A DNA stretch of 59,845 nt from an uncultured Verrucomicrobiota bacterium (GCA_947169825.1 CAMVRE010000003.1:1-59845), one strand, 5' to 3'. Shown: positions 4,430-52,853, numbered from the stretch's first letter. The notes: a model not told the origin generated them from the letters alone. Numbers and translations are program-made.

Positions 4430-5245
4430 ATGCCGCCGGTCAACCAGACAGCAACGTCTCCGGACGTTCCGAACCCCTACCGCAAGCCGGGATTCCGCCA
4501 CGACGGCTTCCTCGTCGCGGAGCTCGTGAAGCGCGACTTCAAGGCGCGCTACGATCGGAGCGTCCTGGGGATGTTCTGGTGCGTGCTCCAGCCCACGCTC
4601 ATGATGGGGCTCCTCTACGCTGTCTTCTCGCTCTTCTTCAAAAGCGCCATTCCGAACTTCCCCCTCTACCTCATCTCGGGCATCGTCTTCTACCAGTTCT
4701 TCGTCGAGACGACGACCACGGCGATGCAGTCCATCCAGGAGAACGCGTCGCTCATCGCCAAGGTGAAGGTTCCCCTATGGACGTATCCGATAACCCGGGC
4801 CATCTCGAGCCTGATCAACTTCCTCTTCGCGCTGATCCCCCTGTTCTGCGTCGTCCTGCTGACACGCGTCCCCCTGCGTCCGACGATGCTGCTGCTGGCC
4901 TACAGCACGGTCTGCATGCTGTTCTTTTCGCTCGGAATCGGGCTCTTCCTCTCGTCGCTCGCCGTCTTCTTCCACGACGTGACGTTCCTCTGGGGCTTCG
5001 CGTGCATGCTCTGCATGTACGCGACGCCCGTCTTCTACCCGGAGGAGGTGCTCATGACCGGGCACCACTGGATGGTCTACTTCAACCCGCTCTACCACAT
5101 GATCCACTTTTCGCGCCTCGTCCTGAACGGGGAGATTCCGCTCCTCACGGAATTCGCCGCCTGCGCGCTCTTTGCGGCCGTCTCGTTCGTCCTGGGCCTG
5201 ATCGTGTTCCGCGCGCTCAAGAACAAATTCGCCCTCGCCCTCTGA
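4430..5245 (+). CDS. wzm: ABC-2 polysaccharide exporter permease
   Basis: ELVKRDFKARY..S.LG.FW..LQP and YATPVFYP..NPLYH motifs with about six hydrophobic segments. Start placed at ATG 4430, just after the promoter. Confidence 0.9.
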   Translation: MPPVNQTATSPDVPNPYRKPGFRHDGFLVAELVKRDFKARYDRSVLGMFWCVLQPTLMMGLLYAVFSLFFKSAIPNFPLYLISGIVFYQFFVETTTTAMQSIQENASLIAKVKVPLWTYPITRAISSLINFLFALIPLFCVVLLTRVPLRPTMLLLAYSTVCMLFFSLGIGLFLSSLAVFFHDVTFLWGFACMLCMYATPVFYPEEVLMTGHHWMVYFNPLYHMIHFSRLVLNGEIPLLTEFAACALFAAVSFVLGLIVFRALKNKFALAL

Positions 5246-5249
5246 TCCC

Positions 5250-6467
5250 ATGGACACGCTCATCGAAGCCAGGAGCCTGAGCCTCCGATTCTCCGCGCCG
5301 ACGGAGAAGAAGGGAAGCCTCAAGAAATGGGTGCTGGACGCCGTGCGCGGCCGGGTGCGAAGCCGGCACTTCCTCGCGGTGGACGACGTCTCCTTCCGCA
5401 TCGAGCGCGGCGAGGCCGTCGGCCTCGTCGGCCGGAACGGCGCCGGCAAGAGCACGCTCCTCAAGCTCGTCACCGGCATCGTGGTGCCGACCTCCGGCTC
5501 GATCGCCGTGCGCGGCCAGGTGGCGCCGCTGCTCGCCCTCGGCAACGGTCTCGACCCGACGCTCTCCGGACGCGAAAACATCTATCTCAACGGCGCGATC
5601 CTCGGCTACGAGAAAGCCTTTCTGAAAGCCCGCGAAGCCGACATTGTCGACTTCTCCGAGCTCGGCGACTTCATCGACGCCCCCGTCCGGACATACTCCT
5701 CCGGCATGACGATGCGTCTCGCGTTCTCTATCGCCTCCGCTGCCACCCCGGAAATCCTCATTCTCGACGAAGTCCTTGCCGTCGGCGATGCGCCCTTCCA
5801 AGCCAAGTGTCGCGCCCGCATCCGTGAGATCATTTCCGATGGCGCCACCGTCTTCTTCGTTTCGCACAGCCTTCCCGACATCGTGCAACTCTGCACCCGC
5901 GCCATTTGGCTGGCAAAGGGCCGGGTCGTAATGGACGGCCCCGCCGCCGAGGTCGCCGACGCCTACCACCACGACGCCGTCCCCGGCCCGGACGACCGCG
6001 AATCGTTGAACCTTCCCTTGCCCGTCCACCGCTTCCGCGCCCCGGCCCACGGGGACGAATGCCTCACGATCGACGAGGGGGAGCGGAACAGCATCCTCGC
6101 CATCATGAAGGAATGGGAGCCCGCCGGCATCGCCTACCGCGCCTTCGCGCGCCCCGTTCCGGGAACGGCTCCCCTCCACCGGTTCTACGCGCACGGCCGC
6201 CGTAGCCATTTCTACACGCTCGACCCGCACGAGCTCGACGCCTTCCGCACGCCCGGCTTCGACTGGGACTACGAGGGTATCTCCCACTACGTGTATCCGA
6301 AGAAAATCGAACATGCCGTCCCGGTGTTCCGCATTCGCGACACGAAGACCGGGAAGTTTTCCTTCAAGGCCGATGTCGGCCGCCCGGCCGGCGAAATCGC
6401 CTGGTGGGCGCTCCCGGCGGCTGCCGGCGACGGCGGGGAAGAACGGCCTCCACGGACGGAGGCATGA
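5250..6467 (+). CDS. wzt: Polysaccharide ABC exporter ATPase with C-terminal DUF5648-like triple repeat
   Basis: Walker A GRNGAGKST, signature YSSGMTMRLAFS, Walker B LILDEVLAVGD and H-loop VSH. The C-terminus (from about 6018) aligns with the HRFY..HFYT..W.YEG repeats of the downstream proteins. Confidence 0.9.
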   Translation: MDTLIEARSLSLRFSAPTEKKGSLKKWVLDAVRGRVRSRHFLAVDDVSFRIERGEAVGLVGRNGAGKSTLLKLVTGIVVPTSGSIAVRGQVAPLLALGNGLDPTLSGRENIYLNGAILGYEKAFLKAREADIVDFSELGDFIDAPVRTYSSGMTMRLAFSIASAATPEILILDEVLAVGDAPFQAKCRARIREIISDGATVFFVSHSLPDIVQLCTRAIWLAKGRVVMDGPAAEVADAYHHDAVPGPDDRESLNLPLPVHRFRAPAHGDECLTIDEGERNSILAIMKEWEPAGIAYRAFARPVPGTAPLHRFYAHGRRSHFYTLDPHELDAFRTPGFDWDYEGISHYVYPKKIEHAVPVFRIRDTKTGKFSFKADVGRPAGEIAWWALPAAAGDGGEERPPRTEA

Positions 6468-6480
6468 GGAACACCAACGC

Positions 6481-7614
6481 ATGAAGAACAAAAACATTCG
6501 GAGACTCGTCGCCTCGGCGGCGCTGGTTCTGTCGCTCGGGGCTGCCCCCGGCGCGCGGGCGAACCAACAGGTCGTCGACAGCGTGACGTGGACCTACGAG
6601 GTCAACGGCGCGAAGGCCACCATCACCGGGGCGAGCCCCCTTCCGAGCGCGCTCGTCTTCCCCAACAACCTCGGCGGCTTTACGGAGATGATCATCAAGG
6701 ATTATCTCTTTCAAACCCGCAGCGTCCTGAAGTCTGTCCGGATTTCCGACGGAGTGGCGGTCATCGGACGCTATGCTTTTTCCAAATGCCCCAACCTGAC
6801 GTCCGTGAACACCGGGAATGGCGTGAAGAACATCGGGGAGCACGCATTCATCGAATGCCGCAATCTGAAGTCCGTGACGATCGGAAACAGCGTGACGAAC
6901 ATCGGGGTCTGGGCGTTCGGCTACTGCACCAACCTCGTCTCGGTGGAGATCGGCGACGGATTGAGGAGTGTCGAGAACCACGGGTTTGGATCCTGCTACA
7001 GGCTCAGGTATCTGGCGTTCCCGGACAGTCTGGAGAGCATTGCCGCCGGCACTGGCGGCGCATTGACGACCGGCGGCGACCTGAACGCCGTCGCCGTGCC
7101 GAAGTCCTGGCAGGGGACGGACAAGCTCGACGGTACGGGAGTCCGGACCTACACCAAGATCTACTACGGTACGCAGAAGGTGACGTTCAACCCGACGGGC
7201 GGAGCGTGCGAGATGGCGACCCACAGGGTCGGAATCGGGGCGACGTACAAGGAGTTCGGCGGTCTGCCCGAGGCGACGAAGCCGGGGAGCCGGCTCGTCG
7301 GGTGGTTCACCGATCCGGGCAAGGGAACGCAGGTGACGGAGGACTCCACGGTGCCCGACACGGCGACGCGGACACTCTACGCGCGCTGGAAGCCAACGCA
7401 GACCGTGACGTTCGATCCGAACGGCGGGACCTGCCCGACGGAGACGAAGATCGTGGATCGAGGCCAGGCGACCGACACCTACGGGTGGGTGCCCGTGGCG
7501 TCGCGGGAGTATTTCGCGTTCCTCGGATGGTTTTCCGAGAAGGAGGGCGGCGAACCGGTGGAGTTCGACACGATGGTTTCGAGCGAGGCGGCGCGGACGC
7601 TCTACGCGCACTAG
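6481..7614 (+). CDS. Secreted BspA-type LRR protein with two InlB B-repeats (N-terminal part of a gene split by an in-frame TAG)
   Basis: Signal peptide, WTYEV motif, LxSVxIGxxVxxIGxxAF LRR_5 repeats, and VTFNPTGG..GWFT..TLYARW repeats. SD GAGG lies upstream, 13 nt after the wzt stop. Confidence 0.85.
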   Translation: MKNKNIRRLVASAALVLSLGAAPGARANQQVVDSVTWTYEVNGAKATITGASPLPSALVFPNNLGGFTEMIIKDYLFQTRSVLKSVRISDGVAVIGRYAFSKCPNLTSVNTGNGVKNIGEHAFIECRNLKSVTIGNSVTNIGVWAFGYCTNLVSVEIGDGLRSVENHGFGSCYRLRYLAFPDSLESIAAGTGGALTTGGDLNAVAVPKSWQGTDKLDGTGVRTYTKIYYGTQKVTFNPTGGACEMATHRVGIGATYKEFGGLPEATKPGSRLVGWFTDPGKGTQVTEDSTVPDTATRTLYARWKPTQTVTFDPNGGTCPTETKIVDRGQATDTYGWVPVASREYFAFLGWFSEKEGGEPVEFDTMVSSEAARTLYAH

Positions 7615-7629
7615 GAGGCGCCGTCCCCG

Positions 7630-8838
7630 GTGTGGCGCTTCTATTCGCCGACCTACAAGGGCCATTTTTACACGATCGACGAGACGGAGAAGGACGGTCT
7701 GATCGCGAACAACCCGAACTGGACCTTCGAGGGAGAGGCCTATCGCGCCTTCACGGTGCGGAGGCCGGGAACGGTCGCGCTCCACCGCTTCTACTCGGCG
7801 AACTACCGGGGCCACTTCTACACGGTCGACGAGGCGGAGAAGGACGACATCATCGCGACAAACCAGAAGAACTGGACCTACGAGGGCGTCGCCTACTACG
7901 TTTTTCCGATGAACAATCCGGACCGTCTTCCCGTCTACCGGTTCTGGTCCGGACGCTACCGCCACCACTTCTACACGATGGACGCGGCGGAGATGGACGG
8001 CGTCAGGGACGGCGACCCGAACTGGACGTTCGAAGGCGTTGCGTTCTGGGCGATCCCAACCGAGGAAACGATCGGCAGAATCGAGAATGGAACGGCCTCG
8101 AGCCCGGAGTTCGTCAACTGGGGCACGACCCTGGCGTGGAATCTCCCCCACGGGAACGTCGTCGCGGGCTCCGTGGAGATTTTCTTCAATGGCGAGTCGG
8201 GCTTGAAGATCCTGGCCGACGACCAAACGGGGCTCCTCGTCCCGTGTTCGACCCTTGCGGTGGAAGGCCTGGTGAAATACTCCACCGGCCGGATCACGGT
8301 GACGTTCGCCAGCCATCCGGGCTTCGGAAAGAAGGTGTTCGTCAAATACAAGTACGTCAAGTCGTTGTCGACCGCTCCGTTGTCAGTCCCCAAAATGACG
8401 GTCAAGCCGTTGGCCGCCGTGGCATATGGAAACGGCGGCGCTTCCGATGAAGTGTCGTCCAATGGCCGCGTCGCCGAAGTCGTCCCGCCGTGGACGCTCG
8501 CGGCGGTGCCGGGCGCGGCTGTGATCGCCGTTCCCGGGGAGACGGACTTCGGCGGGGTTGTCGTGGAGACCCGCGCCGCCGTGCCGGACGCGGACGAACT
8601 GGCCGCGCCTGAGACTGGAGACGCGTCCGAAACGCTCGCACTGCGGCTCTCGCCGCCCGCCGGCACTTGGAATGCGTTGCTATGGAGCTCGACGGACGGC
8701 GTCGTCGCCGACGAAACGGCCGAAGGCGCGTTCGAATTCGACCTGCCCGCGAGCGGCGTCTGGCATTGGCTCCGCGTGCGAGCTGCGGAGGACGAAGATG
8801 CAGCGGATGCCTATTCCCTCTGGTTCCGCGCGGAGTAG
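7630..8838 (+). CDS. DUF5648 triple repeat + HGNVV domain + shared C-terminal domain (C-terminal part of the split gene)
   Basis: Same frame as 6481-7614 and separated from it only by TAG plus 5 codons. Contains three RFYS..HFYT..NW.YEG repeats and ends YSLWFRAE. AGGAGG lies 11 nt before the GTG. Confidence 0.75.
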   Translation: MWRFYSPTYKGHFYTIDETEKDGLIANNPNWTFEGEAYRAFTVRRPGTVALHRFYSANYRGHFYTVDEAEKDDIIATNQKNWTYEGVAYYVFPMNNPDRLPVYRFWSGRYRHHFYTMDAAEMDGVRDGDPNWTFEGVAFWAIPTEETIGRIENGTASSPEFVNWGTTLAWNLPHGNVVAGSVEIFFNGESGLKILADDQTGLLVPCSTLAVEGLVKYSTGRITVTFASHPGFGKKVFVKYKYVKSLSTAPLSVPKMTVKPLAAVAYGNGGASDEVSSNGRVAEVVPPWTLAAVPGAAVIAVPGETDFGGVVVETRAAVPDADELAAPETGDASETLALRLSPPAGTWNALLWSSTDGVVADETAEGAFEFDLPASGVWHWLRVRAAEDEDAADAYSLWFRAE

Positions 8839-8952: not shown

Positions 8953-11900
8953 ATGAAAGCCCCGCGCAGACGCTGTTTCCATCTTCTCCCGACCTTCCTT
9001 CTGCCGCTTCTCGCCGTCCAGCCGGCTACGGCGGAGGAAATCACCCTCGACCAGGCGGAGACCGCCGTCGGGAACTGGATCGCCGCCGGCGGCGGGTTCG
9101 GGAAACTGTCCAGCGGAACCGAGGTGTCCGGCAGGACGCTCGAGGATCCGGAAACCGGGGCGAGGATGCATGTCGTGAACGTTCCCGGCAAGGGATTCGT
9201 CGTTACCTCCGCCGACGACGGCATCGAGCCGATTGTGATGTTCTCCGACGACGGCGGCGTGGAGTTTGTCGCAGAGGTGGGCAACCCCGTATGGGATTTG
9301 CTCCGCTGGGACCTTGCTGTTCGCTCAGCAACGCTTCGAGAAGAACTTGAAGCGAGGAGAATGACGGAGACAAGCAATGATATGCCCGTTCATCGCAACA
9401 AGTCTTCCTTGTATTCCTCGATCGAAACTAGCGGGCAAACGGACAATTGTTCGCCGCGCGAAAAATGGAACGATCTTTTACGCAGGGAACTTAGGAAACG
9501 ATCCGCCTCGCGAGCGGCTTATGCCTCTTTGGAAGTTCTTGCGGAAGATGTTCGGCGATCACCGTTTTTGAAAACGAGGTGGAACCAGGGGAACGTAGGC
9601 GGACTCCCTTGTTACAACTATTTTACTCCGGTAAAGACCACTATCACGGTTGTAGGATCTTCTTCACGGGCTGTTCCTGCAGGGCATTCTGAAACACTGG
9701 AAACAAATCAAACGCACTACGTTTGCGGATGCGTTGCGACGGCTGGTGCCCAGTTGATGAAGTATTGGGAGCACCCGAAGTCGAGCGTCTCGCGCACAAC
9801 TGAAAAATGTTATGTGGACGGGACCTCAACCAATATAACGACGATAGGAGGAAAGTATAGGTGGTCTTCCATGCCGAACAAACCCGCGTCGAATGCGTCG
9901 AGGGATGAGCGCGAAGCAATCGGCCATTTGACTTTTGACATAGGGGTTTCATGCGGTGCCTCATACAAGGATGGTGGAACATCGATCAATATGGGGGCGC
10001 TTATTGCAAATTTGAAGTCTGTATTTAAATACCAATCGGCCTGCGGGGTTAATTGCAAAGTCGCCAGTTCGTCCGGATCGTCTTTTGAAACGCTGAAGAA
10101 TATGGTTCTTCCGAATCTCGATGTTCGAGCGCCCGTTCTTGTGGGAATCCGAAATACGGCCTCGGGGGGCGGGCATTGTGTTCTGGCGGACGGATACGGT
10201 TATCAGTCGGGTAGCCTTTACTTGCATTTGAATATGGGATGGGGAGGCTCCGCCGACCTGTGGTACTCCCCTCCACTTATTAGAACGTACGATGTCATTG
10301 ACTACATAGGCGGAAATGTGTTCCCAAATGAAACAGGATCGATTTTGAGCGGACGGGTCATAGGCAAAAACGGGCGCCCCATTGGCCATGCGGTTGTCAG
10401 CTTGCTATCTTCAAATGGCACCCAAGAAGGAACGTTTATTTCTGCGGAAGATGGTGTCTTTCATTTCGTCAAAACCGCCGGAACGTATGTTGTTGCCGCC
10501 GAAGCCGCAAATCATTATGCCGATTCAGAAACCATTGTTCTTGGCAGTTCGTCGACAAGTTCGATTGGAAACACAATACATGACATTTCCCTGATGGATG
10601 CCGAAACCGTTTCAGCGATTTGGCATCGCAGTTCCACTGTGACGCCAAATTCCGGCGCATCGGTTCGAACTCGTTCTGGCGAACAGACCGATCTTGTCAT
10701 TTCCGGTCCAATTATGGTGGCGCTAGGGTCTGAAACGGACAGTGCTATGATCCACTATACCTTGGACGGCACAATGCCGACGGCCGAAAGCCCGCTCTAC
10801 GACGGCCCAATCTCGATCCAGGACACGACAACGCTCCGTGCCGTGGCGTATGCCGACGGCATGGAGTGTAGCGAGACATTTGAGCAGACATGGACGTATG
10901 TCGACCCGGTCAGTCGCGACAACTTCGCGGATGCGCGTCCGTTGGCGAGCACGAGCGGCAGTTCGACTTTTTCCAACGTCGGCTACACGAGGGAGGGCGG
11001 AGAGCCGGTCCACTCGAGCGCCGGGTCTTCCGGCGGCGCCTCGGCGTGGGCGTCGTGGACGGCGCCGTCGACCGGAGACTGGACGTTCCGGCTCGAGTCC
11101 GCCGGGGACAATGCGCAGGTGACCACCCCCAATCCGCAGCTGGCGGTATACATCGGTTCCTCCGTTGATGCATTAACCCTCGTGGCCGCGAACGACGACA
11201 TTTGTCCGGATCGGTGGAGCGACGCCTACGACGTCTCGAGCATGGTCGCCTTTTCGGCTTTCGCTGGCGAGACCTACAAAATCGCAATGGACACGCGCTA
11301 TGGCTCCTATGGCGACTCCTACGTCGGAGACCTGCTCCTGAGCTGGGCCGAGGGTTTTACGCATTGGGCGAGGCTCGACTACTGTTCCCTGTTTGCACCC
11401 GGACCGGGAACGACGGCCTCGGTTGGCGTGGAATCCTCCGCTGGCTGGTGCGTCGTCGAGTGCTCCGATTGGATCATTCCCGATTCGGCGACGGGAACCA
11501 ACGGACAGCAGCTCGCGTTCTCCGTCCTCGCCAACGAAACCGGTGCGGATCGCTACGGCTCCATCTCGATCCAGTCCGGAAACTCCGACATCGCCACGGT
11601 GTCGGTCCGGCAGCACGTCATGGACTTCGTCACGAAACGGGAGGAGGCGGTGGAGGCGGCCTGGCGGGAGAACAAGCGCATACTTCTCGTCCGCGGACGA
11701 GAAGTATGCCCCAACACGAGCGGAACCCTTTTCTCGTCCATTCCGTCTTCGACCATCCGACCGCTGGTAGAGGCCGGGTACGTCCTCTGGTACAGCAATT
11801 GTGATCGCCAGCGGGATGCGAGCGCCTATTCCGCCGGAGGATCCCTTCCCACGGTCGCCATCCTCGACCCGCTGGACATGTCCGCCCCCGCCCCCGCGAC

Positions 11901-40427: not shown

Positions 40428-40431
40428 CGCC

Positions 40432-41742
40432 ATGCCGTTCCGTCCTTTCGAACCGTTCGCCGCCTTCGCCCGGATCGTCCGGCGCGACGGTCTCGCCGTC
40501 TTCCCCAAGGCGGCGAAATACGCCTTCTCCCCGACCGCGTGGCGCTGGCTGCTGTGCGGGGGGGCGGGGGCCGCCCGCGGCGTCGCCGAGGCGGACGTCG
40601 AGACGATCCGCGCGTCGCGCTGGTTCGATGCGGAGTGGTATCTGCGGAAGTATCCCGACGTGCGGCGCTCCGGCGTCGATCCGGCCGCCCATTACGCCGA
40701 GTTCGGACGAGGCGGAGGCTTCGATCCGGGGCCGTATTTTTCGTCGGAGGAGTATCTCCGGCTCAACGAGGACGTTCGCGTCGGCGGCGACAATCCCCTC
40801 GTCCACTTCGAGCGGTGCGGCCGGGCGGAAGGCCGCCCGATTTCGGCCATCCAGTGCCGGAGGACCGCCTTTCCCGAGGGGGCGATCGAAACCGAGCGCC
40901 CGTTCCCCGCCCCTCCGCGCCGCCATCGGCGCGTCGCCGTGTTCGCCGCCTTCTTCCCGGACGGGCGGATTCCGGAGACGACGCTTTGCTACCTGCGGGG
41001 CCTGCGCGAAGTCGCGGACGACATCCTTCTCTTCGCCAACTGCCCGGTGTTCCCGGACGAGCTCCGCAAGCTGGACGGGCTGGTCCGCCACGCCGGGTTC
41101 CGCGTCCACGGCGGGCACGACTTCCTTTCCTATCGACTCGGATACGAGAAGGCCCGCGAGCTCGGGCTGCTCGACGCGGCGGCGACCGACGAGCTGATCC
41201 TCGCGAACGACTCGTGCTACGGGCCGGTGTTCCCGTTCCCGGAATGCTTCGCGAAGATGGCGGGCCGCCCGTGCGACTTCTGGGGCATGACCGCGAACGC
41301 CGGCGCGTACCGCTCGGAGCATGTCCAGTCCTTCTTCTTCGTGTTCCGACGCCCCGTGCTGGACGGAACCGCGCTCGGCCGGTTCCTCGGCGGCGTCGAG
41401 GTCCTCGGATCGAGATGGGAGGTCGTCCGCCGCTACGAGGTCGGCTTCACCGCCGCGCTCGAGGAGGCCGGATACGCGTGGGACACGCTCGTGCCGCGGG
41501 ACTTTTCCGCCCGGCATGGCGGGGACATGGCGATGCGGCGCGTCCTCGAAACGCTTTCCGTCCACGGCATGCCGCTCGTGAAGGCGAAGGGACTGGACAC
41601 CTACATGGTCGACGACCGGGACGCCGTCCTCGACTTCATCCGGGCGCGCAATCCGGCGCTCGCGGCGGCCATCCCGCCGCCGCCGCCGCCCGTGGACTAC
41701 GAGGCGGTGCGCCGTCTTCGCAAGGAGGCCGCCCAACCATGA
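40432..41742 (+). CDS. RgpF (rhamnan synthesis F)-like protein
   Basis: FDAEWYL..YPDV..DP..HY repeats, followed by ILANDSCYGP, DFWG, HVQSFFFVF and YEVG motifs. Confidence 0.8.
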   Translation: MPFRPFEPFAAFARIVRRDGLAVFPKAAKYAFSPTAWRWLLCGGAGAARGVAEADVETIRASRWFDAEWYLRKYPDVRRSGVDPAAHYAEFGRGGGFDPGPYFSSEEYLRLNEDVRVGGDNPLVHFERCGRAEGRPISAIQCRRTAFPEGAIETERPFPAPPRRHRRVAVFAAFFPDGRIPETTLCYLRGLREVADDILLFANCPVFPDELRKLDGLVRHAGFRVHGGHDFLSYRLGYEKARELGLLDAAATDELILANDSCYGPVFPFPECFAKMAGRPCDFWGMTANAGAYRSEHVQSFFFVFRRPVLDGTALGRFLGGVEVLGSRWEVVRRYEVGFTAALEEAGYAWDTLVPRDFSARHGGDMAMRRVLETLSVHGMPLVKAKGLDTYMVDDRDAVLDFIRARNPALAAAIPPPPPPVDYEAVRRLRKEAAQP

Positions 41743-43679: not shown

Positions 43680-45859
43680 CGATCGATGATTTCCGCACGG
43701 TTCCTCGCAAGGGATCGTTCTCCTTCCGAGACGCGTGGAGGCTCGCGGCCGCCGTGTCCGCGGGCCTTGCCGCGGCGGCGGCGGTCTGCTCCTTCGTCCG
43801 TGTTCCCGGCTGGCTCGAGGCCGACGTCTGGTCCTGGCGGCGGTTCGCCGCCAGGACGCTTCTGCTTTCCGTCCCCCTGTCCGCCCTGGCCCTCCACTTG
43901 TTCTGGCCGGCGGAACGCATCTGGGGCTTTGTCGACCGCAACCGCTTCCGCATCGCGGCCGCCATCCTCTTCGTCGCGACGCTTCTGGAGCTGAACGGCT
44001 CGTCCATCGGGATGTGGAACCAGTATCTGCCCAACGACAAGGCCGCGGCTCCGCTCTTCGGCGTCCCGCGGGGGATCCGGTCGGACGAATGGGCCGTCTT
44101 CACGCCCATGACGCTGGCGCAGTCGTTCGCCCGGCCGTCCTGGCCGTACTTCAACGACATCCCCCGCGCCGCCCGGACGGACATGTTCTCCGTCTACGCG
44201 CAGCCCGTCCGGCATCCCCTGGTCGTCTTCCGTCCGTTCCTCGCCGGACACGTCCTGTTCGGCTTCAGGCGCGGGCTCGCGTTCTTCTGGGTCGGGCGAT
44301 GGCTCGCCCTTCTCCTGGCCGCCTACGAACTCTTCAAGCTGCTGACCGACGGCAGCAAGGCGCTTTCCGGCGCAGCGGCGGCATTGATCCTGTTCTCCCC
44401 CGTCGTCCAATGGTGGGGCGCGATCAACGCATTGGCGGAGATGCTGGTCTTCGGGTCGCTGTTCGTGGTCTGCCTGGATCGGTTCATGACGGGGCGAACG
44501 CTCCGCGACCGATGGCTGCCCATCGCCGGGATGGCGTATTGCGGCGTCGCCTACGCGATGACGCTCTATCCGGCCGCGATGGTACCGCTCGCCTACGCCT
44601 TCGCGGCCCTTTCGCTCTGGACGGTTCTCCGGCGCGCGAAAGGGTTCCGCGCGGACGCCGCAACGTGGGCCTTCGCGGCCCTTGCCGCGCTCGTGGCGGC
44701 CGGGTGCCTGGGCTGGTACCTCCATCTTTCCGGGGACGCGTTCCGCACAACCGCCGGAACGGTGTATCCGGGGAGTCGCTTCCATTGCGGGGGAGGAGCG
44801 AAGGCCTGGCACCTGTGCCGGTCGTGGGGCGATTTGTTCCTCCCGTGGACCTCCGACGGAGCCCTGAATTCGTTCGAGCTTTCGGCGTTCTTCGACTTCT
44901 TCCCCCTTGGGCTCGGTCTTGCGGTCTTCCTGTTCGTCCGGCGCGGCGTTCGCGACCTGGCCAGCCTGCTGCTGGTCGCGGTGTCCCTTCTTCTGGGGCT
45001 GTATTGTCTCGTCGGTCTGCCGCATGGGGCGGCGGGGACGCTGCTGCTGTCGCGATCGACTCCGTCGCGGTCCCTCGTGGCGCTCGGTTTCGTCCAGCTG
45101 CTGTTGCTCGTCCGCTCCGTGTCGCTGCTCCGCCCGGTCCCTTCCGTCCGCCGGTCGCTCCTCTGTGCCGCGGCGTTCGCCGTCCTGGCCGTCTGGCTGT
45201 CCCGTCTGGCCTACCCGGCCTACCTGGGATGGCCGAGGCTTCTGGCGGTCGGCGTGGCCGCGGCGGCCTCCGCCTCGTTGCTGCTTCGGTTCTCCGCGTG
45301 GCCGCGGACGGCGGCCTTCTTTTTCGTCGTCCTCGCCTTCGCCGCAGGCGGGTTCGTCAACCCCGTCCAGCGGGGCGACGCGGGCGTCCTGTCGTCGGAT
45401 CTGGCGCGGACGATCCGATCGATCGCCGAACGGGAGGGCGGCGCGTGGGCGGTGGACGGGGAAACCCTTCCGATGAACCAGTATCCCCTTCTCGTCGGCG
45501 CTCCGACGGTCAATGCGGGGAACGTCTATCCCGTCCTGGAGCGATGGGCGGAGGCCGATCCGGACGGGAAGGACCGGCAGACGTGGAACCGCTATGCCGT
45601 CAGCATGCGGTTCGACGTTCGGCCGGACGGCGGCCCGTCCTTCCGGCCGCTTGTCCAGGACTCCTTCCAGTGCGACGTCCCCCTGGCCCTTCTCGGACGC
45701 TGGAACGTTCGCTGGGTGCTGAGCCGGCGAAGGGGGCTGAAGGGCCTGTCCGGGGGCGGCCTCCGGCTTCGCCGCGTCGCCAAGGCGTCGGGATGGTACG
45801 TCTATGCCGTCGAACCGAATCCGGAATCCACGGCCGATCCAGGGCCTACCGGTACCTGA
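43676..45859 (+). CDS. Polytopic GT-C-superfamily membrane glycosyltransferase (glycan side-chain decoration)
   Basis: More than 10 hydrophobic segments, a PRGIRSDEW acidic loop motif, TVYPGSR, and a C-terminal soluble domain. Confidence 0.65.
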
Positions 45860-46556
45860 GGATGCACCAGATGGCGCGGAAGCCGTCCTTCCAGCCGATG
45901 TGCTTGCCCTCCTTGTAGGTGCGGCCGTTGTAGGAGATGCCGACCTCGTAGATGCGGAGCCCGGCGCGGGCGACGCGCGAGGTGATCTCGGGCTCGAAGC
46001 CGAATCGGTCCTGCTGGAGGGACGGGAGGATCTCCTTGAGGACGGGCGTCCGGAAGACCTTGTAGCAGGTCTCCATGTCCGTGAGGTTCAGGTTGGTGAA
46101 CCAGTTGGAGAGCGTCGTGAGGAACCTGTTGCCGACGGAGTGCCAGTAGTAGAGGACGCGGTGGGGCGCTCCGCCCATGAAGCGCGAGCCGAAGACGACG
46201 TCGGCCTTTCCCTCGAGGATTGGGGCGAGCAATTGAGGATACTCGGCCGGATCGTACTCGAGGTCGGCATCCTGTACGATGACGGCGTCGCCCGTCGCGG
46301 CGGCGAAGCCGGTGCGTAGCGCGGCGCCCTTGCCGCGGTTGACGTCGTGCCGCAGCTTGACGAACGTGTTGTGCTCGTCGTCGGCGAAGTCTTCCATCAC
46401 GGCGCGGGAGCCGTCCTTCGAGCAGTCGTCCACGAGGATGATCTGCTTTCGTATCGGCACGGCGCGGACGGCGTCCACGAGCCGCGCGAGCGTGCGTTCC
46501 TCGTTGTAGACGGGAATGACAACAGAAAGGACGAAATCGTTCGGAATGTTATTCAT
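45846..46556 (-). CDS. DPM1-like GT2 (polyprenol-phosphate sugar synthase)
   Basis: [55 protein letters not shown] and [10 protein letters not shown] motifs. Confidence 0.9.
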
Positions 46557-46563
46557 GCCGGGC

Positions 46564-46593
46564 ATTCTATCACGGATGCATGCCAGTGGGCAA
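46564..46593 (-). promoter_or_regulatory. Internal leaderless promoter of the DPM1-like gene
   Basis: TTGCCC, 18 bp, TG-A-TAGAAT, with the ATG 7 nt later. It overlaps the 3' end of the upstream RgpF-like gene. Confidence 0.6.
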
Positions 46594-47955
46594 GCGGGGC
46601 TCCGAAGTGGAAATCGGCTGAGCCGGGCGGGATGGCGCTTCATGCCGGATGGCGGTCGCAAGATCGGGGTTGAACCGTTCCACGAGTTCCAGGAGGCGTT
46701 CCGGCGCCTGGCTCGACTCGCCGGTGAAGGCCTTCGCCTTGACGAGCGGGGACTTGTAGCGGCGGATCAGGTCAAGCGGCCGCGTCGTCGGGTTGAACTT
46801 GTGGCGAAGTCGCGGAAAGCAAGGGCGTACGAACGCGTCCGGGACGAATCCGCGGCGGCGCAGATGATCCGTGAGCTGGATCTCGAACCGGTCGATGGCT
46901 TCGTTGCGCGTCGCGCGCGCGGGCCGCTCGGCGAAAAAGGACTCCAGGGCGCCGGCGTCCAGAACCGGTCGGCGGAAAACGAGGAAGAAGGACTGCAGGT
47001 GCGGGGTCCCGGAGCGCTGCGTGTTGAACGTGAGCCCCCAGAAGTCGGCGCGGCGTTTCTCCATCGCCCGGAACATTCCCGGGAACGGTCGCACCGGGGC
47101 GTAGCAGGAGCTGTTGGCGAAGACGAGCTCGTGGCAGCGTTCCGCGGCCAGCCATCCGCGTTCGCGCACCGCGCGCAGACCGATGCGCCATGAGCCGAAG
47201 TCGTAGCCGCCGTGCCAGCGGCAGACGGCCGCGGACGCGAGGCCGCGCAGCTTCTCCTCCTCGCCGGGCAGCAGGGGCGAATTGGCTGCGTAGACGATGT
47301 TGTCGCAGACTTCGCGAAGTCCTCTCAGGTAGAGAAGATCGCGATCCGGAATGCGGCCGTCGGGCGAGAACGAGGCGTAGACGGCGGTTCGTCCGTGGAC
47401 GGACGGTTCGTCCACGAGTCCGAGGTCCAGCTCGCGGGCGTCCGCGGGAAAGACGGGTTCTTCCCGCGCGGCGGCCTCGGCCCTCGTAACCGGACAGCCG
47501 ATGAAGCGTCCGTACTGCTCGTAGTGGACGAGCGGATTCAACCCGTCCGCGCGAACCTCCGGGTTGAGCTCCAGGTAGACGGCTCCGGAGAAGTCGGGGG
47601 ACGCCCGCCAGTCGTCGGGAAGGTCGTGCAGAAGGTAGTGCAGCTCCGGGGAGAGTCCCGAGCGGGCGATCTCCGGGTGGTTCGCCGCGTACCATTCGCG
47701 GTCGAAGAGGGGGGAGCGGTGGATCGTGAGAAGGTCGATCGGCAGGCGAAGGAGCCGGATGAACGCCAGGCGGTCGCGAACGCCCTCCCGCAGGAGCCGC
47801 GCGAAAAGGCGCGGATGCCGGATCGCGAACGCGGCAAGCCCGAATGCCGTCCGCGCCAGTACGCCCGGGGTGAAGAAGGAAAACAGGAAGTCTGGCCGGT
47901 CGGTCTTCCGGGGCGGAGGAGGGGATTGTTGGGCGTGGGGACGGCGGTTGAACAT
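46570..47955 (-). CDS. Third RgpF-like protein
   Basis: FDREWY..HPEI..SPELHY repeats, followed by [28 protein letters not shown] and FEIQ motifs. GGAGAGG SD upstream. Confidence 0.8.
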
Positions 47956-47979
47956 GAGGTCCTCTCCCGGACGGGAGCG

Positions 47980-48375
47980 TTATCCGCGGATCTTTTCGAT
48001 GATGGCCGTCGTTGAAATGATCGGGGTGCGGGGAAGATAGAGGACTTCGCAGCCCGTGAGCGGAATCACCCAGTCGAACTGGCCGGTCCAGTCGTCGCCC
48101 ATGACGAGAAGGTCCGCCTTGTACTGCTTGATATACTCGGCCTTGCGCTCGAGCGACTCCTCCGTGAAGGTTTCATCGACGCACTTGAGCGCCCCGACGA
48201 TCCGGGCCCTTTCCTCGAACGAGTAGTACGGGTTGCGCCCTTTTTTCGCGAAACTGAGTTCGTCGCTTGAAATGCCGACGACGAGATGGTCGCACAGGTC
48301 GCGCGTGCGCTCCAGGATCCGGAGATGACCGTAGTGGAAGACGTCGAATGTGCCAAAGGTGATTCCGCGTTTCAT
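47980..48375 (-). CDS. tagD: Glycerol-3-phosphate cytidylyltransferase-like (TagD family), copy A
   Basis: GTFDVFHYGH (HxGH), MGDDW and RTPxISTT motifs. The substrate is not established. Confidence 0.8.
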   Translation of the reverse strand: MKRGITFGTFDVFHYGHLRILERTRDLCDHLVVGISSDELSFAKKGRNPYYSFEERARIVGALKCVDETFTEESLERKAEYIKQYKADLLVMGDDWTGQFDWVIPLTGCEVLYLPRTPIISTTAIIEKIRG

Positions 48376-48411
48376 CGGCTGCCAGACTTTTTTTTCGCGG
48401 GGGCGAACCGT

Positions 48412-48810
48412 CTACGGCCGGTTCCGCTCCATGAGCTCCGTCGTCGAGACGCCGGGGGTGCGGGGGAGGTAGACGACCTCGACGCCGCAGGCCTCGCGGA
48501 GCCAGTCGAAGCGGCCCTCGTAGTCGGCGCCGATGATGAAGACGTCGGCGTGGTGCTCGCGGACGTAGTCCGCCTTCCGCTCCTCGCACTCCTCCTTGAA
48601 GACCTCGTCGACGCAGCGCAGCTCCGCGACGATCGCCGCACGCTGCTCGTAGGGGAAGGCGAGGCCGTGGCTCTTGTTCTTGCTCGCGATGAACTCGTCG
48701 CTCGAGACGCCGACGACGAGCCGGTCGCAGAGCGCGCGGGCGCGCTGCAGGATGCGCAGGTGCCCGTAGTGGAACATGTCGAACGTGCCGAAGGTGATGC
48801 CGGTTTTCAT
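48412..48810 (-). CDS. TagD-family cytidylyltransferase, divergent copy B
   Basis: GTFDMFHYGH, IGADY and RTPGVSTT motifs; 132 aa. ATGA-coupled to the FGGY kinase. Confidence 0.85.
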   Translation of the reverse strand: MKTGITFGTFDMFHYGHLRILQRARALCDRLVVGVSSDEFIASKNKSHGLAFPYEQRAAIVAELRCVDEVFKEECEERKADYVREHHADVFIIGADYEGRFDWLREACGVEVVYLPRTPGVSTTELMERNRP

Positions 48811-50279
48811 GCGCGCTCCTTCATGGCGGCGAACCGGGCGGAGGCCTCCGCCCATGCGGACGCGCTCGCCCGGTTCGGTTCGTAGGCGATCGGCGGATCG
48901 GAGACGCCCATAAGCTCCCGGGCCTCGGCGTGGTCCCTGAGGTCGCCCATCGCGATCATCTGCACGAGGACGTTGCCCGCGCAGGCGCCCTCCGTCGGGC
49001 CGCAGAGGACCGGCACGCCGAGTGCGTCGGCCGTCATCCGGCAGTGCAGCGCGTTGCGCGTAGCGCCGCCGATCATGTTGAGGCCGTCGCGCTTCTCGCC
49101 GGTGATGCGCTCGAGCTGCGTCCAGAGCTCCTTGTAGCGCAGCACCATGCTCTCCAGCGCGCAGCGCGCGAAGGCGCCCTTGCTCTCCGGGACGGGCTGG
49201 CCGGTGCGCTTGCACCATGCGGCGATCTTCTCGTCCATGTGCCCCGCGCGCTGGAAGTCCGGCGCGTCCGGATCGATCAGCGAGACGAACGGCTTCGCCT
49301 TCTCGGCCATCTCGGTCATGCGGTCGTAGGGCACGTCCTCGCCCTGCTCCTTCCAGGCCTTGTGCAGCTCCTGGTAGACCCACATGCCGGTGAGGTTCTT
49401 CATGAACCGGATGCCGCCGGTGATGCCGATTTCGTTCGTCCAGCTGCATTCGTAGGCCTCGTCGGAGAAGATCGGCTCGGGGATCTCGGCGCCGACGAGC
49501 CCCCAGGTGCCGGTCGAGAGGCAGCCCCACTTGCCCTCCTTCGGGACGGGGATCGCGGCGACGGCGGAGGCGGTGTCGTGCGTGCCGACGGCGACGACCT
49601 GCGTCGAGTAGCCCTCGAGGTTCCGGATCGGGCCGAGGATCGTGCCGGGGCGGACGAGCTCGCCGAAGATGCGCCTCGGGAGGCCCGCCGCGTCGATCAG
49701 GTCCCAGGCCCAGTTGCGCGCGCGAACGTCGAGGCACTGGCTCGTGGAGGCCATCGTGATCTCGTTGGAGAGGACGCCCGAAAGCCAGTAGTCCATGAGG
49801 TCGGGCACCATGAGGAAGCGCGCGGCGCGGTCGAGCTGCGAGGCGGGGGACCGCGACTCCGCCACGAGCTGGAAGAGCGTGTTGATCGGCATGAACTGCG
49901 TGCCGGTCGCGTCGTAGATGCGGCGGCGTCCGAGCTTCGCGCACGTTTCGTCCATTACGCCGTCGAGGCGCGGGTCGCGGTAGGAATGCGGCAGGCCCGT
50001 CAGGCGCCCGGCGGCGTCCACGAGCGCGTAGTCCACGCCCCAGGTGTCGACGCCGACCGAGGCCGGCTCGGATCCGAGCGCGCGGGCCCGGCGAACGCCC
50101 TCGAGGATGTTGCGGTAGAGGGCGACCATGTCCCAGTGCAGGCCGCCGGGCAGCGGCGTCTGGGCGTTCTCGAAGCGGTTTGTCTCCTCGAATCGGAGGC
50201 GGGATCCGTCGAACCGGCCCGCGATCACGCGGCCGCTACCGGCGCCCAGATCGGACGCAACGTAGATTTTTTCACTCAT
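48807..50279 (-). CDS. rhaB: Rhamnulokinase-like FGGY carbohydrate kinase
   Basis: VASDLGAGSGR, VGVDTWGVDY, SYRDPR, GTQFMPINTLFQL, HDTASAV, STGTW, NLTGMW and PTEG..GN motifs. Confidence 0.85.
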   Translation of the reverse strand: MSEKIYVASDLGAGSGRVIAGRFDGSRLRFEETNRFENAQTPLPGGLHWDMVALYRNILEGVRRARALGSEPASVGVDTWGVDYALVDAAGRLTGLPHSYRDPRLDGVMDETCAKLGRRRIYDATGTQFMPINTLFQLVAESRSPASQLDRAARFLMVPDLMDYWLSGVLSNEITMASTSQCLDVRARNWAWDLIDAAGLPRRIFGELVRPGTILGPIRNLEGYSTQVVAVGTHDTASAVAAIPVPKEGKWGCLSTGTWGLVGAEIPEPIFSDEAYECSWTNEIGITGGIRFMKNLTGMWVYQELHKAWKEQGEDVPYDRMTEMAEKAKPFVSLIDPDAPDFQRAGHMDEKIAAWCKRTGQPVPESKGAFARCALESMVLRYKELWTQLERITGEKRDGLNMIGGATRNALHCRMTADALGVPVLCGPTEGACAGNVLVQMIAMGDLRDHAEARELMGVSDPPIAYEPNRASASAWAEASARFAAMKERA

Positions 50280-50287
50280 GGCCATTG

Positions 50288-50317
50288 ATTCTAGCAGAAA
50301 ACGGCACATCAATGCAA
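50288..50317 (-). promoter_or_regulatory. Promoter of the kinase-cytidylyltransferase operon
   Basis: TTGCAT, 18 bp, TG-C-TAGAAT, with the ATG 8 nt later. Confidence 0.65.
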
Positions 50318-50319
50318 CC

Positions 50320-50348
50320 TTGCGGTGGCCGCGGCCGTTTGCTAGAAT
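50320..50348 (+). promoter_or_regulatory. Back-to-back divergent promoter of tagD copy C
   Basis: TTGCGG (50320-50325), 17 bp, TG-C-TAGAAT (50340-50348), with the ATG 9 nt later. Confidence 0.7.
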
Positions 50349-50357
50349 CACCCCCCT

Positions 50358-50753
50358 ATGAAGCGAGGCATCACCTTCGGCACGTTCGACGTCTTCCACT
50401 ACGGGCACCTGCGTCTGCTCGAGCGTGCGCGCGCGCTATGCGACTGGATGGCCGTCGGCGTCTCGAGCGACGAGCTCAGCGTCTCGAAGAAAGGTCGGGC
50501 ACCCTGCTATCCGTTCGAGGAGCGCGCACGGATCATCGGGGCGCTCCGATGCGTCGACGAGGTCTTCCGCGAGGAGTCGCTCGAGCGCAAGGCCGACTAC
50601 ATCAGGAAGTACGGGGCGGACATCCTCGTGATGGGCGACGACTGGGCCGGCAAGTTCGACTGGGTGGTTCCGCTCACCGGCTGCGAGGTCCTTTACCTTC
50701 CGCGCACGCCGGCCATCTCGACGACGGCAATCATCGAGAAGATCCGGGGCTAG
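50358..50753 (+). CDS. tagD: TagD-family cytidylyltransferase, copy C (about 81% aa identical to copy A)
   Basis: HxGH, GDDW and RTP..STT motifs. Differs from copy A at 25 of 131 positions, counted by eye. Confidence 0.8.
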   Translation: MKRGITFGTFDVFHYGHLRLLERARALCDWMAVGVSSDELSVSKKGRAPCYPFEERARIIGALRCVDEVFREESLERKADYIRKYGADILVMGDDWAGKFDWVVPLTGCEVLYLPRTPAISTTAIIEKIRG

Positions 50754-51553
50754 TCCGCGGCTTTGCCAGGCGGGGCGGGCGGTTCTCGCAGGAGGGACGA
50801 CCGACGGGCGAACCGGACGCGGAAGGCGGTGCGGAAATAGCGGAAGTTGGCGAGGAAGGTGTTCTGGGATTCGCCTTCGGCGCGCGGCCTCCAGTTCGCC
50901 GGAATCTGGACGAAGGGCACGCCGAGCCGGAGGGGGACGATCGAGGTCTCCAGAAAGAACGGATGGCGCAGCTCCCGCCAGTCGACCATCCGCAGGAGAT
51001 CCGTCGGAAACAGGCGGAAGGCGTAGGTCAGGTCGCTCAGCCGCGTCAGGAACATCGCGGCGATGAGCTTCTGGAAGATCGCGTTGCAGACGATCTTCAC
51101 GCGGCTGTAGCCGGAGAAGCCGCCGCCGGCCATCCAGCGCGACGCGGTGACGACGGCCCCCGGCGCCCGCTTCGACTCGGCGATCATCCGGCCGACCGCC
51201 TCCGGCGGCGTTTCGAGATCGGCCGACATCATCACGCAGTGGGACCCCTTCGCCTCCGGAATGGCGCTCCGGTAGGCGCCGCCCGCGAAGGGAAGCGCCT
51301 GGTAGAGGATGCGGACAGGCGGGCGCCCGTCGGATTCCGAGACGAGCGCCTCCGCCGTTTCGCGGCAGCCGGGCGTCGTCCGATCCGGATGGAGGAGGAT
51401 CAGGATTTCCGCGAGATCCTCGGGACGGCAGAACCTCCGGAGCTCCTCGACGGTTTCGCGGAGCGAGAAGGTCTCGTTGACGGCCGCGACGAGGACGCTG
51501 GCGCCCGTGAACGCGCCGGGAAGACGGGCAACGACGGAAGGTCGGTCGGACAT
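50750..51553 (-). CDS. DPM1-like GT2 (second polyprenol-phosphate sugar synthase candidate)
   Basis: SVLVAAVNE, GGAYRSAI, VMMSADLETPP, VTASRW, LSDLTYAFRLF and W.PR.EGESQ motifs. Confidence 0.7.
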   Translation of the reverse strand: MSDRPSVVARLPGAFTGASVLVAAVNETFSLRETVEELRRFCRPEDLAEILILLHPDRTTPGCRETAEALVSESDGRPPVRILYQALPFAGGAYRSAIPEAKGSHCVMMSADLETPPEAVGRMIAESKRAPGAVVTASRWMAGGGFSGYSRVKIVCNAIFQKLIAAMFLTRLSDLTYAFRLFPTDLLRMVDWRELRHPFFLETSIVPLRLGVPFVQIPANWRPRAEGESQNTFLANFRYFRTAFRVRFARRSSLLREPPAPPGKAAD

Positions 51554-51560
51554 GCCGCCG

Positions 51561-51589
51561 ATTCTAGCAGATTCGCAGTCGCGGCACAA
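51561..51589 (-). promoter_or_regulatory. Leaderless promoter of the GT2 gene
   Basis: TTGTGC, 17 bp, TG-C-TAGAAT, with the ATG 7 nt later. Confidence 0.7.
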
Positions 51590-51614
51590 ACGCGGCTGGA
51601 AGGCGTCCGGTCGC

Positions 51615-51643
51615 TTGCCCCGGGACCCCGCCTGTGCTAGGAT
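51615..51643 (+). promoter_or_regulatory. Divergent leaderless promoter of the flavoprotein gene
   Basis: TTGCCC, 17 bp, TG-C-TAGGAT, with the ATG 7 nt later (51651). Confidence 0.65.
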
Positions 51644-51650
51644 GGGGGCG

Positions 51651-52853
51651 ATGAAGACAAAGATCGCGATCATCGGCGCCGGTCCGGCCGGCCTCGCGCT
51701 CGCCAATGCGCTGCTTCGGCGCGGCATCGGGGATTTTCTGGTTCTGGAGCGCGAGGCGGAAGCGGGCGGCCTCTGCCGTTCGCAGATCGTCGACGGCGCC
51801 CCGCTCGACACCGGCGGCGGGCACTTCCTCGACGTCCGGCGCCCCGCCGTGACGGCGTTCGCCTTCGACTTCCTTCCCGAGGCGGAGTGGAACCGCTTCG
51901 ACCGCGATTCCCGCATCTCGATCCACGGGCGTCTGATCGGAAGCCCGTTCGAGGCGAACATCTGGCAGCTCGACGAGGCGCACCAAAGGCGCTACCTCGC
52001 CGACATCGCCGCGGCGGGGTGCAACACGGGCGCGCCGATGCCGGAAAAGTTCGTCGACTGGATCTACTGGAAGCTCGGCCGGGGCATCGCCGAGGACTAC
52101 ATGCTGCCCTACAACCGCAAGATGTTCGGCGACGACCTGAACGTCCTCGGGACGTATTGGCTGGAGAAGCTGCCGAACGTCTCCTACGAGGATACGCTGC
52201 GCAGCTGCGAGGAGCGCCGCCCCCACGCGGTCCAGCCGGGGCACGCCTCCTTCCACTACCCGAAGGCGTTCGGCTTCGGCGAGCTCTGGCGCCGCATGGG
52301 CGAGGCGCTCGGGCCCCGGCTCCTCCTCGGGACGCCCGCGCGGACGCTCGACGTCGCGTCGCGGACCGTGAACGGCGAGATCGAGGCGGGGCTCGTCGTC
52401 AACACCGCCCCGTGGCCCGCGTTCGAGCGGATCGACGGCCTCTCCCCGGAGTCGCTCGCGGCGATCGCCTCGCTCCGGCACACGGCCGTGGACATCGACT
52501 ACGTCCCGGAGGATCCCGACACGCCGGCGCAGTGGATCTACCAGCCCGATCCGGCGCTGCCGGAGCACCGCTGGCTCGTGCGCCGCAACTTCCTCCCCGG
52601 CTCGCGCGGCTATTGGCGCGAGACACGCCGGGAGCGCAACCCGCCGCTTCGTCCGGGGGCGTTCCGCGCGACGAACGACTGGGCCTATCCGCTCAACACC
52701 GTCGGGAAGAACGAGGCGATGGCGGCGCTGCTCGCGGAGGCGTCCGCGCACGGCGTCCTCGGCCTCGGCCGCTGGGGCGAGTGGCAGCACTACAACTCCG
52801 ACCTCGTCGTGGAGCGCGCCCTCGCGCTGGCGGAGCGGATCTCGCGCGGCTGA
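51651..52853 (+). CDS. FAD-dependent oxidoreductase (protoporphyrinogen-oxidase/UDP-galactopyranose-mutase-like)
   Basis: IIGAGPAGL..LERE..GGLCRS, D.GGGHF, PYNRKMF and GRWGEWQHYNSD motifs. Confidence 0.75.
   Translation: MKTKIAIIGAGPAGLALANALLRRGIGDFLVLEREAEAGGLCRSQIVDGAPLDTGGGHFLDVRRPAVTAFAFDFLPEAEWNRFDRDSRISIHGRLIGSPFEANIWQLDEAHQRRYLADIAAAGCNTGAPMPEKFVDWIYWKLGRGIAEDYMLPYNRKMFGDDLNVLGTYWLEKLPNVSYEDTLRSCEERRPHAVQPGHASFHYPKAFGFGELWRRMGEALGPRLLLGTPARTLDVASRTVNGEIEAGLVVNTAPWPAFERIDGLSPESLAAIASLRHTAVDIDYVPEDPDTPAQWIYQPDPALPEHRWLVRRNFLPGSRGYWRETRRERNPPLRPGAFRATNDWAYPLNTVGKNEAMAALLAEASAHGVLGLGRWGEWQHYNSDLVVERALALAERISRG

Follow-up and report, generated by a model that had tools for sequence, protein, structure and literature searches.

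Non-covalent anchoring of exported proteins to wall polymers is known from monoderm bacteria, in which SLH domains pair with pyruvylated secondary cell wall polymer (SCWP) and CWB2 domains with polysaccharide II (PSII) of Clostridioides difficile. Glycan-held proteins are also known in diderms, as in the case of Caulobacter RsaA on the O antigen and of the cargo of the Porphyromonas type IX secretion system (T9SS), which is linked to anionic lipopolysaccharide (A-LPS) in exchange for its C-terminal domain (CTD). Therefore, glycan-anchored display in a diderm is not by itself a new category. Here, we describe a locus in a 59,845-nucleotide stretch of DNA from an uncultured Verrucomicrobiota bacterium (GCA_947169825.1 CAMVRE010000003.1:1-59845; the whole stretch that was analyzed is called the window), in which the genes of a Wzm/Wzt glycan exporter are followed by an array of seven genes for secreted proteins with one common DUF5648 module and by a block of glycosyltransferase (GT) genes. 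The best reading overall, to which we give about an even chance, is that the DUF5648 tails tether these proteins to the cell's own surface glycan.

The locus resembles the SLH/SCWP and CWB2/PSII loci in that one module is carried by unrelated exported proteins whose genes cluster beside polymer genes. It differs from them in that the array proteins gave no SLH or CWB2 match with Pfam, and in that the setting here is an outer membrane and a Wzm/Wzt-exported polymer. Compared with RsaA and the T9SS cargo, the binding domain is another one, the cargoes are many, no T9SS-type CTD match was found in the array proteins, and the mode of attachment is assumed to be non-covalent. Three features are new here: DUF5648 stands in for the Wzt_C domain, the array is interleaved with the Wzm/Wzt locus of a diderm, and most of the carriers have a companion CTD. 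The sequence-only reading had called the system undescribed, which is only partly right. The Wzt fusion and the extra CTD do not appear in five published papers that use the term DUF5648, but the glycan-binding role of the family has already been proposed in print.

DUF5648 (PF18885) is known in GH70 enzymes as the "(beta3-alpha)3" auxiliary domain and in the Bacteroidales proteins BSAP-2 and BSAP-3 as the "cluster 1" C-terminal domain (PMC11299179; bioRxiv 10.1101/2025.01.06.631476 = PMC12853789). The same fold is present on a GH25 endolysin, and a role in glycan or O-antigen binding has been put forward for the family (PMC11299179; PMC12853789). BSAP-2 and BSAP-3 are toxins against the lipopolysaccharide (LPS) O antigen of sensitive strains, and the producer's non-targeted orthologous surface molecule is encoded beside the toxin gene (PMC11901371). 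The modules of the present locus are like the rest of the family, as all eight (Wzt and the seven secreted proteins) exceed the PF18885 gathering cut-off of 25 bits, with 67 to 197 bits, and are predicted to be three-bladed. Unlike in the GH70 and BSAP proteins, they are found here on C10 peptidases, leucine-rich repeat (LRR) adhesins, a lipase fold, and a beta-helix of a diderm of the Planctomycetes-Verrucomicrobia-Chlamydiae (PVC) group, and also on a cytoplasmic Wzt ATPase; five of the seven secreted carriers add an uncatalogued CTD, and the array heads lack the MACPF domain that precedes DUF5648 in the BSAP toxins.

DUF5648 is a very common domain, with matches to 4,639 representative clusters (E <= 0.001). 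It has neither a solved structure nor a measured ligand, and the locus makes its function directly testable. In one probable operon, the fold replaces a domain of known job (Wzt_C) and forms the tail of seven exported proteins beside glycan genes. If the tails bind the locus glycan, DUF5648 would join SLH, CWB2, and the pairing of RsaA with O antigen as a means of holding proteins on a surface polymer, in a rumen diderm of the PVC group; should their ligands be other glycans, the locus would instead encode a set of glycan-targeted enzymes comparable to the BSAP toxins. Either outcome would give a function to a large uncharacterized domain family.

An exporter ATPase with DUF5648 in the place of Wzt_C

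The window is contig C3 of a metagenome-assembled genome (MAG) of 3.08 Mb in 394 contigs, 73% complete and labeled G000, whose lineage is named in related records as rumen or goat-gut Kiritimatiellae. Genes were called by open reading frame (ORF) picking guided by the GC content of third codon positions (GC3), together with Pfam and NCBIfam scans and hidden Markov models (HMMs) of our own. A BamA gene at 53546-55885 (Pfam/NCBIfam scan) confirms the diderm envelope, in agreement with the outer membrane that had been supposed from the sequence. The exporter and array genes are the following:

4430..5245, + strand: wzm, ABC-2 permease (PF01061 ABC2_membrane, 64 bits)
5250..6467, + strand: wzt, ATPase with C-terminal DUF5648 (ABC_tran, PF00005, and PF18885)
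6481..8838, + strand: g3, signal peptide, LRR_5 and Flg_new, a TAG codon, then DUF5648, middle beta domain and CTD (PF18885 120 bits, in the part called g3b)
8953..16065, + strand: g4, 2370-aa C10 peptidase with Inhibitor_I69, Peptidase_C10, BACON, CHB_HEX_C, six Flg_new, DUF5648 (aa 2061-2199) and CTD (PF18885 124 bits)
16081..18456, + strand: g5, membrane protein with ~6 transmembrane (TM) segments, TPR and GDSL/SGNH, without DUF5648
18533..19915, + strand: g6, low-complexity secreted protein (GSYGSSGG) with DUF5648 at its end, without CTD (PF18885 197 bits)
20028..25196, + strand: g7, alpha/beta-hydrolase (lipase/thioesterase fold) with PPC, DUF5648 (aa 1427-1567 of the ORF) and CTD (PF18885 132 bits)
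~25178-27685, start codon uncertain, + strand: g8, I69 and C10 peptidase with DUF5648 and CTD (PF18885 129 bits)
27733..29946, + strand: g9, signal peptide, BspA-type LRR (LRR_5), DUF5648, middle beta domain and CTD (PF18885 130 bits)
30126..32018, + strand: g10, signal peptide, beta-helix (choice-of-anchor Q), Flg_new and DUF5648, without CTD (PF18885 187 bits)

The wzm and wzt genes form an adjacent pair of ABC-2 permease and Wzt-type ATPase (PF01061, PF00005), as in the glycan exporters that depend on a carbohydrate-binding module (CBM). Wzm has five TM segments and is 79-86% identical to its counterparts in congeners. The best NCBIfam matches of the pair are NF050108 and NF050109, both under their equivalog cut-offs (Wzm reaches 72 bits with NF050109, the galactan Wzm/RfbD model). 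With the CBM-dependent transporters of E. coli O9a and Aquifex aeolicus (PMC9445017), the locus shares the gene pair, the family of the nucleotide-binding domain (NBD), and, where their CBM reads the capped end of the glycan, a C-terminal extension of ~150 aa. It differs from them in that this extension is DUF5648 and not the Wzt_C fold, and in having only candidates for the cap or terminator enzyme.

In the Pfam scan, Wzt gave no match to PF14524 (Wzt_C), and DUF5648 holds that position (aa 258-369, ~6021-6420, PF18885 67 bits). PF14524 was found at the same position in nine of the ten nearest non-fusion Wzt homologues, which belong to Opitutales, Planctomycetota, Nitrospirales, and others and have NBDs 44-56% identical to that of the window. 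In this ATPase, a known carbohydrate-binding domain is swapped for DUF5648. As Wzt_C recognizes the modified O-antigen terminus in characterized WzmWzt transporters (PMC9445017), the replacement supports glycan binding by DUF5648 and is the best evidence for it in the window. Together with the literature on O-antigen-directed, GH70, and GH25 proteins, it makes carbohydrate binding by DUF5648 probable, and the proposal of a glycan-binding module made from the sequence gains support accordingly.

The Wzt-DUF5648 fusion is kept in six congeners and six metagenome proteins. Across these orthologues, the NBD is 81-91% identical and the DUF5648 module only 30-77%; fast evolution of a module next to a stable NBD is, judged from these identities, the pattern expected of a specificity domain. 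The AlphaFold2 (AF2) model of Wzt residues 257-388 comprises three beta-beta-alpha-beta units, of which the last lacks the helix, with a predicted local distance difference test score (pLDDT) of ~88-93. No such fusion was found outside the genus in a non-exhaustive search of the best 150 of the 4,639 representative matches, of 150 class-level genomes of 89 genera, and of 45 other Wzt loci, where DUF5648 was also absent from the surrounding 10 kb.

The secreted array and its companion domain

Pfam and our own HMMs recovered what had been read from the sequence, namely, seven signal-peptide proteins with unrelated heads, here of five types, each carrying one three-repeat DUF5648 module. Signal-peptide-like N-termini were recognized by eye in all seven, weakly in g6 and with an uncertain start in g8. 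The repeats of the secreted modules are ~45-50 aa long, with the motif RF[YW]S..Y.GHF[YF]T.D..E...L....NPNW.YEG.A[FY]Y. The AF2 model of the g9 tail (mean pLDDT 80) predicts three beta-beta-alpha-beta units in residues 1-144 (pLDDT ~84-93). A sequence search of the PDB with g9 returned LRR proteins only, with no DUF5648 structure found there, and when the tail model was run against the PDB with Foldseek, the only matches were to generic beta-sandwiches (template modeling score, TM, <0.2).

All genes from wzt through g10 lie on the same strand, with successive gaps of 13, 114, 15, 76, 112, -19, 47, and 179 nt. The first of these gaps, between the wzt stop codon (6465-6467) and the ATG of g3 (6481), is the one reported earlier. 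Promoter and terminator scans were uninformative, terminator-like sites being no commoner than in shuffled sequence; the array genes are probably co-transcribed with wzm/wzt. The carriers had been described as a run on one strand between wzm/wzt and the GT block, and all seven are so placed, but the run also contains g5, which lacks DUF5648. A g5 homologue lies immediately after wzt in metagenome contig L020, and g5 is a probable glycan-modifying enzyme of the export locus. As g5 would be part of the glycan machinery, array genes and glycan genes would therefore be interleaved.

In g3, an in-frame TAG at 7612-7614 lies right between Flg_new and DUF5648, so that the signal peptide and the LRR/Flg_new region precede this codon and the DUF5648 and CTD region, with no signal peptide of its own, comes after it; unbroken relatives of this architecture exist (e.g., P0045), and the TAG may mark a pseudogene, an actual split of the gene, or a fault of the assembly. 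The 3' ends of g4 (15138-16069) and g8 (26758-27689), 933 bp that encode DUF5648 and the CTD, are 94.7% identical at the DNA level, which indicates recent duplication or gene conversion of the tail. At 20000-22000, in the lipase-fold N-terminal half of g7, the GC content falls to 0.49, compared with 0.60-0.72 elsewhere, which suggests a foreign origin of the g7 head domain. In g6, an imperfect tandem repeat at 18676-18837 encodes the GSYGSSGG region, with ~92-94% self-matches at offsets of 42-60 nt.

The companion CTD is present at the extreme C-terminus of five of the seven array proteins, with copies at the following positions:

8596-8835: CTD of g3
15823-16062: CTD of g4
24954-25193: CTD of g7
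27443-27682: CTD of g8
29704-29943: CTD of g9

In these proteins, DUF5648 is followed by a segment of the form WTL..G..IA.PG....ETR..PD, a linker that is acidic and variable, and, at the very end, a domain of ~65-80 aa with the pattern LP.G.W..LWS...AEGAF.F.LP..GVWHWLRVRDAADEDA.DAFSLWLRAE, in which LP.G, F.F.LP, WHWL, and LW.RA are invariant. The AF2 model of the g9 tail predicts this domain to be all-beta, and profile searches gave no match to it in Pfam, NCBIfam, or the PDB. In the related genomes (9 of 41) and in the protein database, it was found solely downstream of DUF5648 and never alone, and it is restricted to this Kiritimatiellae lineage.

The terminal position, the invariant motifs, the predicted all-beta fold, and the occurrence solely behind DUF5648 would suit a sorting signal, in which case the tail, above all the CTD, would direct transport across or attachment at the outer membrane, by analogy with the T9SS CTD, and DUF5648 would be accessory; one homologue, moreover, adjoins genes of a type II secretion system (T2SS). 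We consider this explanation improbable, although such a role could coexist with anchoring. Two of the carriers, g6 and g10, end in DUF5648 without a CTD, and in other phyla DUF5648 is widespread without it. Neither Pfam nor NCBIfam gave a sorting-domain match, including Por_Secre_tail and TIGR04183, the PDB offered no sequence or fold match for the tail, and no dedicated transport genes were found at the locus.

Linkage to glycan genes and the ligand of the tails

The proximity of secreted DUF5648 genes to glycan genes is not particular to this window. In the congeners G003 and G011, wzm and wzt (with DUF5648) run straight into the GT genes, and the array of the window is therefore an insertion into a contiguous locus, in line with the earlier view that it splits a single polysaccharide locus. 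In G008, one DUF5648 and CTD gene lies within a wzm-wzt-RgpF-DUF7657 cluster, and a five-gene array of DUF5648 and CTD proteins adjoins the genes GT2, gX, and megaGT (the latter two are described with the GT block), as in the window; in G004, one secreted DUF5648 gene adjoins a megaGT homologue. The order in contig L020 is C10-DUF5648, Reprolysin-C14-DUF5648-CTD, wzm, wzt-DUF5648, GDSL, DUF5648, and a TOD1 GT, and that in L022-25 is wzm, wzt-DUF5648, a 1360-1637-aa protein with two DUF5648 and a CTD, a 340-aa gene, GT2, and GT2. Outside the genus, a DUF5648 protein adjoins an RgpF-like gene (G019:C24), the order DUF7657-RgpF-GT2-wzt-wzm is followed by two DUF5648 genes in another family (G040:C24), and one DUF5648 gene adjoins GT2 (G027:C172); in a further family (G048), a three-gene array lies by GT2 genes and another DUF5648 gene by GT2a and DUF7657 homologues.

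Linkage of secreted DUF5648 with glycan loci thus spans five Kiritimatiellia genera, and its conservation in related genomes, on which the sequence-only reading had staked its proposal, is observed. By a rough estimate, linkage within 15 kb in at least three of the seven lineages would arise by chance with a probability of ~4e-4. Additionally, secreted DUF5648 and RgpF tend to occur in the same genomes (odds ratio 10, p = 0.003 by Fisher's test, without phylogenetic correction).

It is important to consider the observations that weigh against self-glycan tethering. Wzt had been said to carry the same module as the secreted proteins, and membership in PF18885 stands, but the Wzt copy is divergent: it is only 28-42% identical to the secreted modules, which are 54-88% identical among themselves, its third blade is shortened, and the aromatic motif is mostly gone from blades 1 and 3. 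In the tree, the two types of Wzt module, A and B, group together in a clade with no other members (support 88); its sister group was not resolved. G003 and G011 have the fusion and no secreted DUF5648 in the genome, so the Wzt fusion is independent of the array, and in G040 the C-terminal extension of Wzt is not DUF5648 despite the linkage. The close orthologues of the G000 secreted modules occur in G008 and G004, whose Wzt module is of the very different type B; the tails fail to vary together with the Wzt module, which they should do if both recognized one epitope, and this is the strongest reason to doubt a strictly shared ligand. Among 22 secreted-DUF5648 loci of relatives, seven lie among unrelated genes (G008:C11, G008:C43, G004:C157, G014:C70, G019:C50, G020:C43, and G027:C201), with neighbors such as V-ATPase, FtsK, UvrA, Pol III delta', and LytB, and six more are on short contigs or were not read. 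Finally, a genome-wide profile search returned nine PF18885 matches, all inside the window; this concentration speaks for tethering, but the count may be incomplete because the MAG is only 73% complete.

Three related ideas were set aside. A derivation of the Wzt module from the neighboring secreted modules is not supported, given the separate clade of types A and B; concerted evolution of the tails within each genome, which would have pointed to a ligand common to them and specific to that genome, was rejected since the secreted modules group by orthology over G000, G008, G004, and M20 and not by genome; and a cryptic DUF5648 in the G040 Wzt extension was ruled out on checking.

The absence of co-variation and the seven loci distant from glycan genes also speak for a rival reading of whose glycan is bound. 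The tails could target non-self or environmental glycans, such as competitors' O antigens, feed, or host, in the manner of BSAP-2 and BSAP-3, which are the only studied diderm case and use a DUF5648-type domain on a non-self O antigen. The gene placement would then follow if effectors were acquired or selected with an unbound variant self-glycan, or if the locus were a hot spot for accessory genes, and both the presence or absence of secreted DUF5648 genes among congeners and the low-GC segment of g7 would fit such a history. We rank this explanation second and hold it to be possible but doubtful, because Pfam found no MACPF or other pore-forming or toxin head in the seven proteins, because seven different cargoes on one tail are typical of anchoring modules, and because the cell's own Wzt, which must read self glycan, has the same fold. 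The probable co-transcription of the genes with wzm/wzt points in the same direction.

The eroded state of the Wzt module, with its truncated third blade and lost aromatic motifs, the stop codon in g3, and the many DUF5648 genes of relatives that are unlinked to glycan genes could also be read as coincidence, the array being an accessory insertion without a tie to the glycan and the Wzt module a decaying relic. However, this module is kept in 16 of the 16 orthologues found, is modeled with a pLDDT of ~90, and has conserved residues within each type, and the linkage in five genera is well above the rough chance estimate. Coincidence is accordingly very improbable and the least likely of the explanations considered.

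If the tails are held by the cell's own glycan, the GT block would build this glycan on the cytoplasmic face, and Wzt would read the nascent chain via DUF5648 in place of Wzt_C, after which Wzm/Wzt would export it. Sec would carry the seven proteins out of the cytoplasm, and a secretin-type pathway would probably take them through the outer membrane; the genome has at least four secretin genes. The DUF5648 tails would then bind the surface polysaccharide non-covalently, the cell's own glycan being their probable ligand, and the proteases, the lipase-fold enzyme, the LRR adhesins, and the beta-helix protein would probably stay on the coat. That Wzt reads a variable cap and the tails a conserved backbone is an assumption that would reconcile the type B Wzt with orthologous tails. 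The combined proposal in which DUF5648 and the CTD together form the anchor of a new display system of diderm Kiritimatiellia, with cargo passing via secretin and caught on an O-antigen-like glycan, with the fold recruited by the exporter ATPase in place of Wzt_C to license export of this glycan, and with one family reading the polymer on both sides of the envelope, appears to us rather unlikely as a whole.

An observation from a relative touches on the export route. At locus L010 (G008:C11, 1816-9435), a 1168-aa protein with two DUF5648 modules adjoins the genes for T2SS protein F and a secretin, a neighborhood that hints at the outer-membrane route of the DUF5648 proteins.

The glycosyltransferase block

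Downstream of the array, the following genes were found, their limits within 45846..52853 being settled using homologues:

32088..33110, - strand: gX, conserved gene of ~340 aa between the array and the GT block
33107..38467, - strand: megaGT, 1786-aa multi-glycosyltransferase with GT2, GT4, GT1 and TOD1/MUCI70 domains (Pfam)
38466..45859, + strand: translationally coupled operon, comprising the next four genes
38466-40427, + strand: GT2
40432-41742, + strand: RgpF-like GT
41739-43679, + strand: second RgpF-like GT
43676-45859, + strand: DUF7657/DUF7654 polytopic membrane protein
45846-46661, - strand: polyprenyl-phosphate-sugar-synthase-like GT2
46570-47955, - strand: third RgpF-like GT
47980-48411, - strand: TagD-like cytidylyltransferase
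48807-50408, - strand: rhamnulokinase-like FGGY kinase
50346-50753, + strand: inverted TagD-like paralogue
~50750-51560, - strand: GT2
~51648-52853, + strand: FAD oxidoreductase related to UDP-galactopyranose mutase

The protein encoded by gX gave no Pfam or NCBIfam match and is possibly GT9-like, as judged by eye only; a homologue 61% identical occupies the same position in G008, and the 340-aa gene of L022-25 is likewise placed. The 1786-aa multi-GT is a candidate single-chain polymerase, perhaps also the terminator, of the exported glycan.

The glycan had been described as rhamnan-like, a label that we abandon, as the RgpF matches are partial (~200 of the 503 positions of the model) and RmlC was not found in the recovered genome of this 73%-complete MAG. 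No methyltransferase or kinase terminator was recognized at the locus, where only the two TagD-like genes and the multi-GT are candidates. The genome contains four Wzy_C/WaaL-like genes, and an LPS-linked glycan is therefore possible.

Immediately upstream of wzm, a 1439-aa ORF without a Pfam or NCBIfam match occupies positions 1-4320, with an open 5' end and a GC3 of 0.95. At the other side of the locus, the two TagD-like genes (TagD being glycerol-3-phosphate cytidylyltransferase) form an inverted duplicate at 47987-48378 and 50355-50746, with 80% DNA identity, on either side of the FGGY kinase gene, and CDP-glycerol could be the donor for a cap or other decoration of the glycan with glycerol phosphate.

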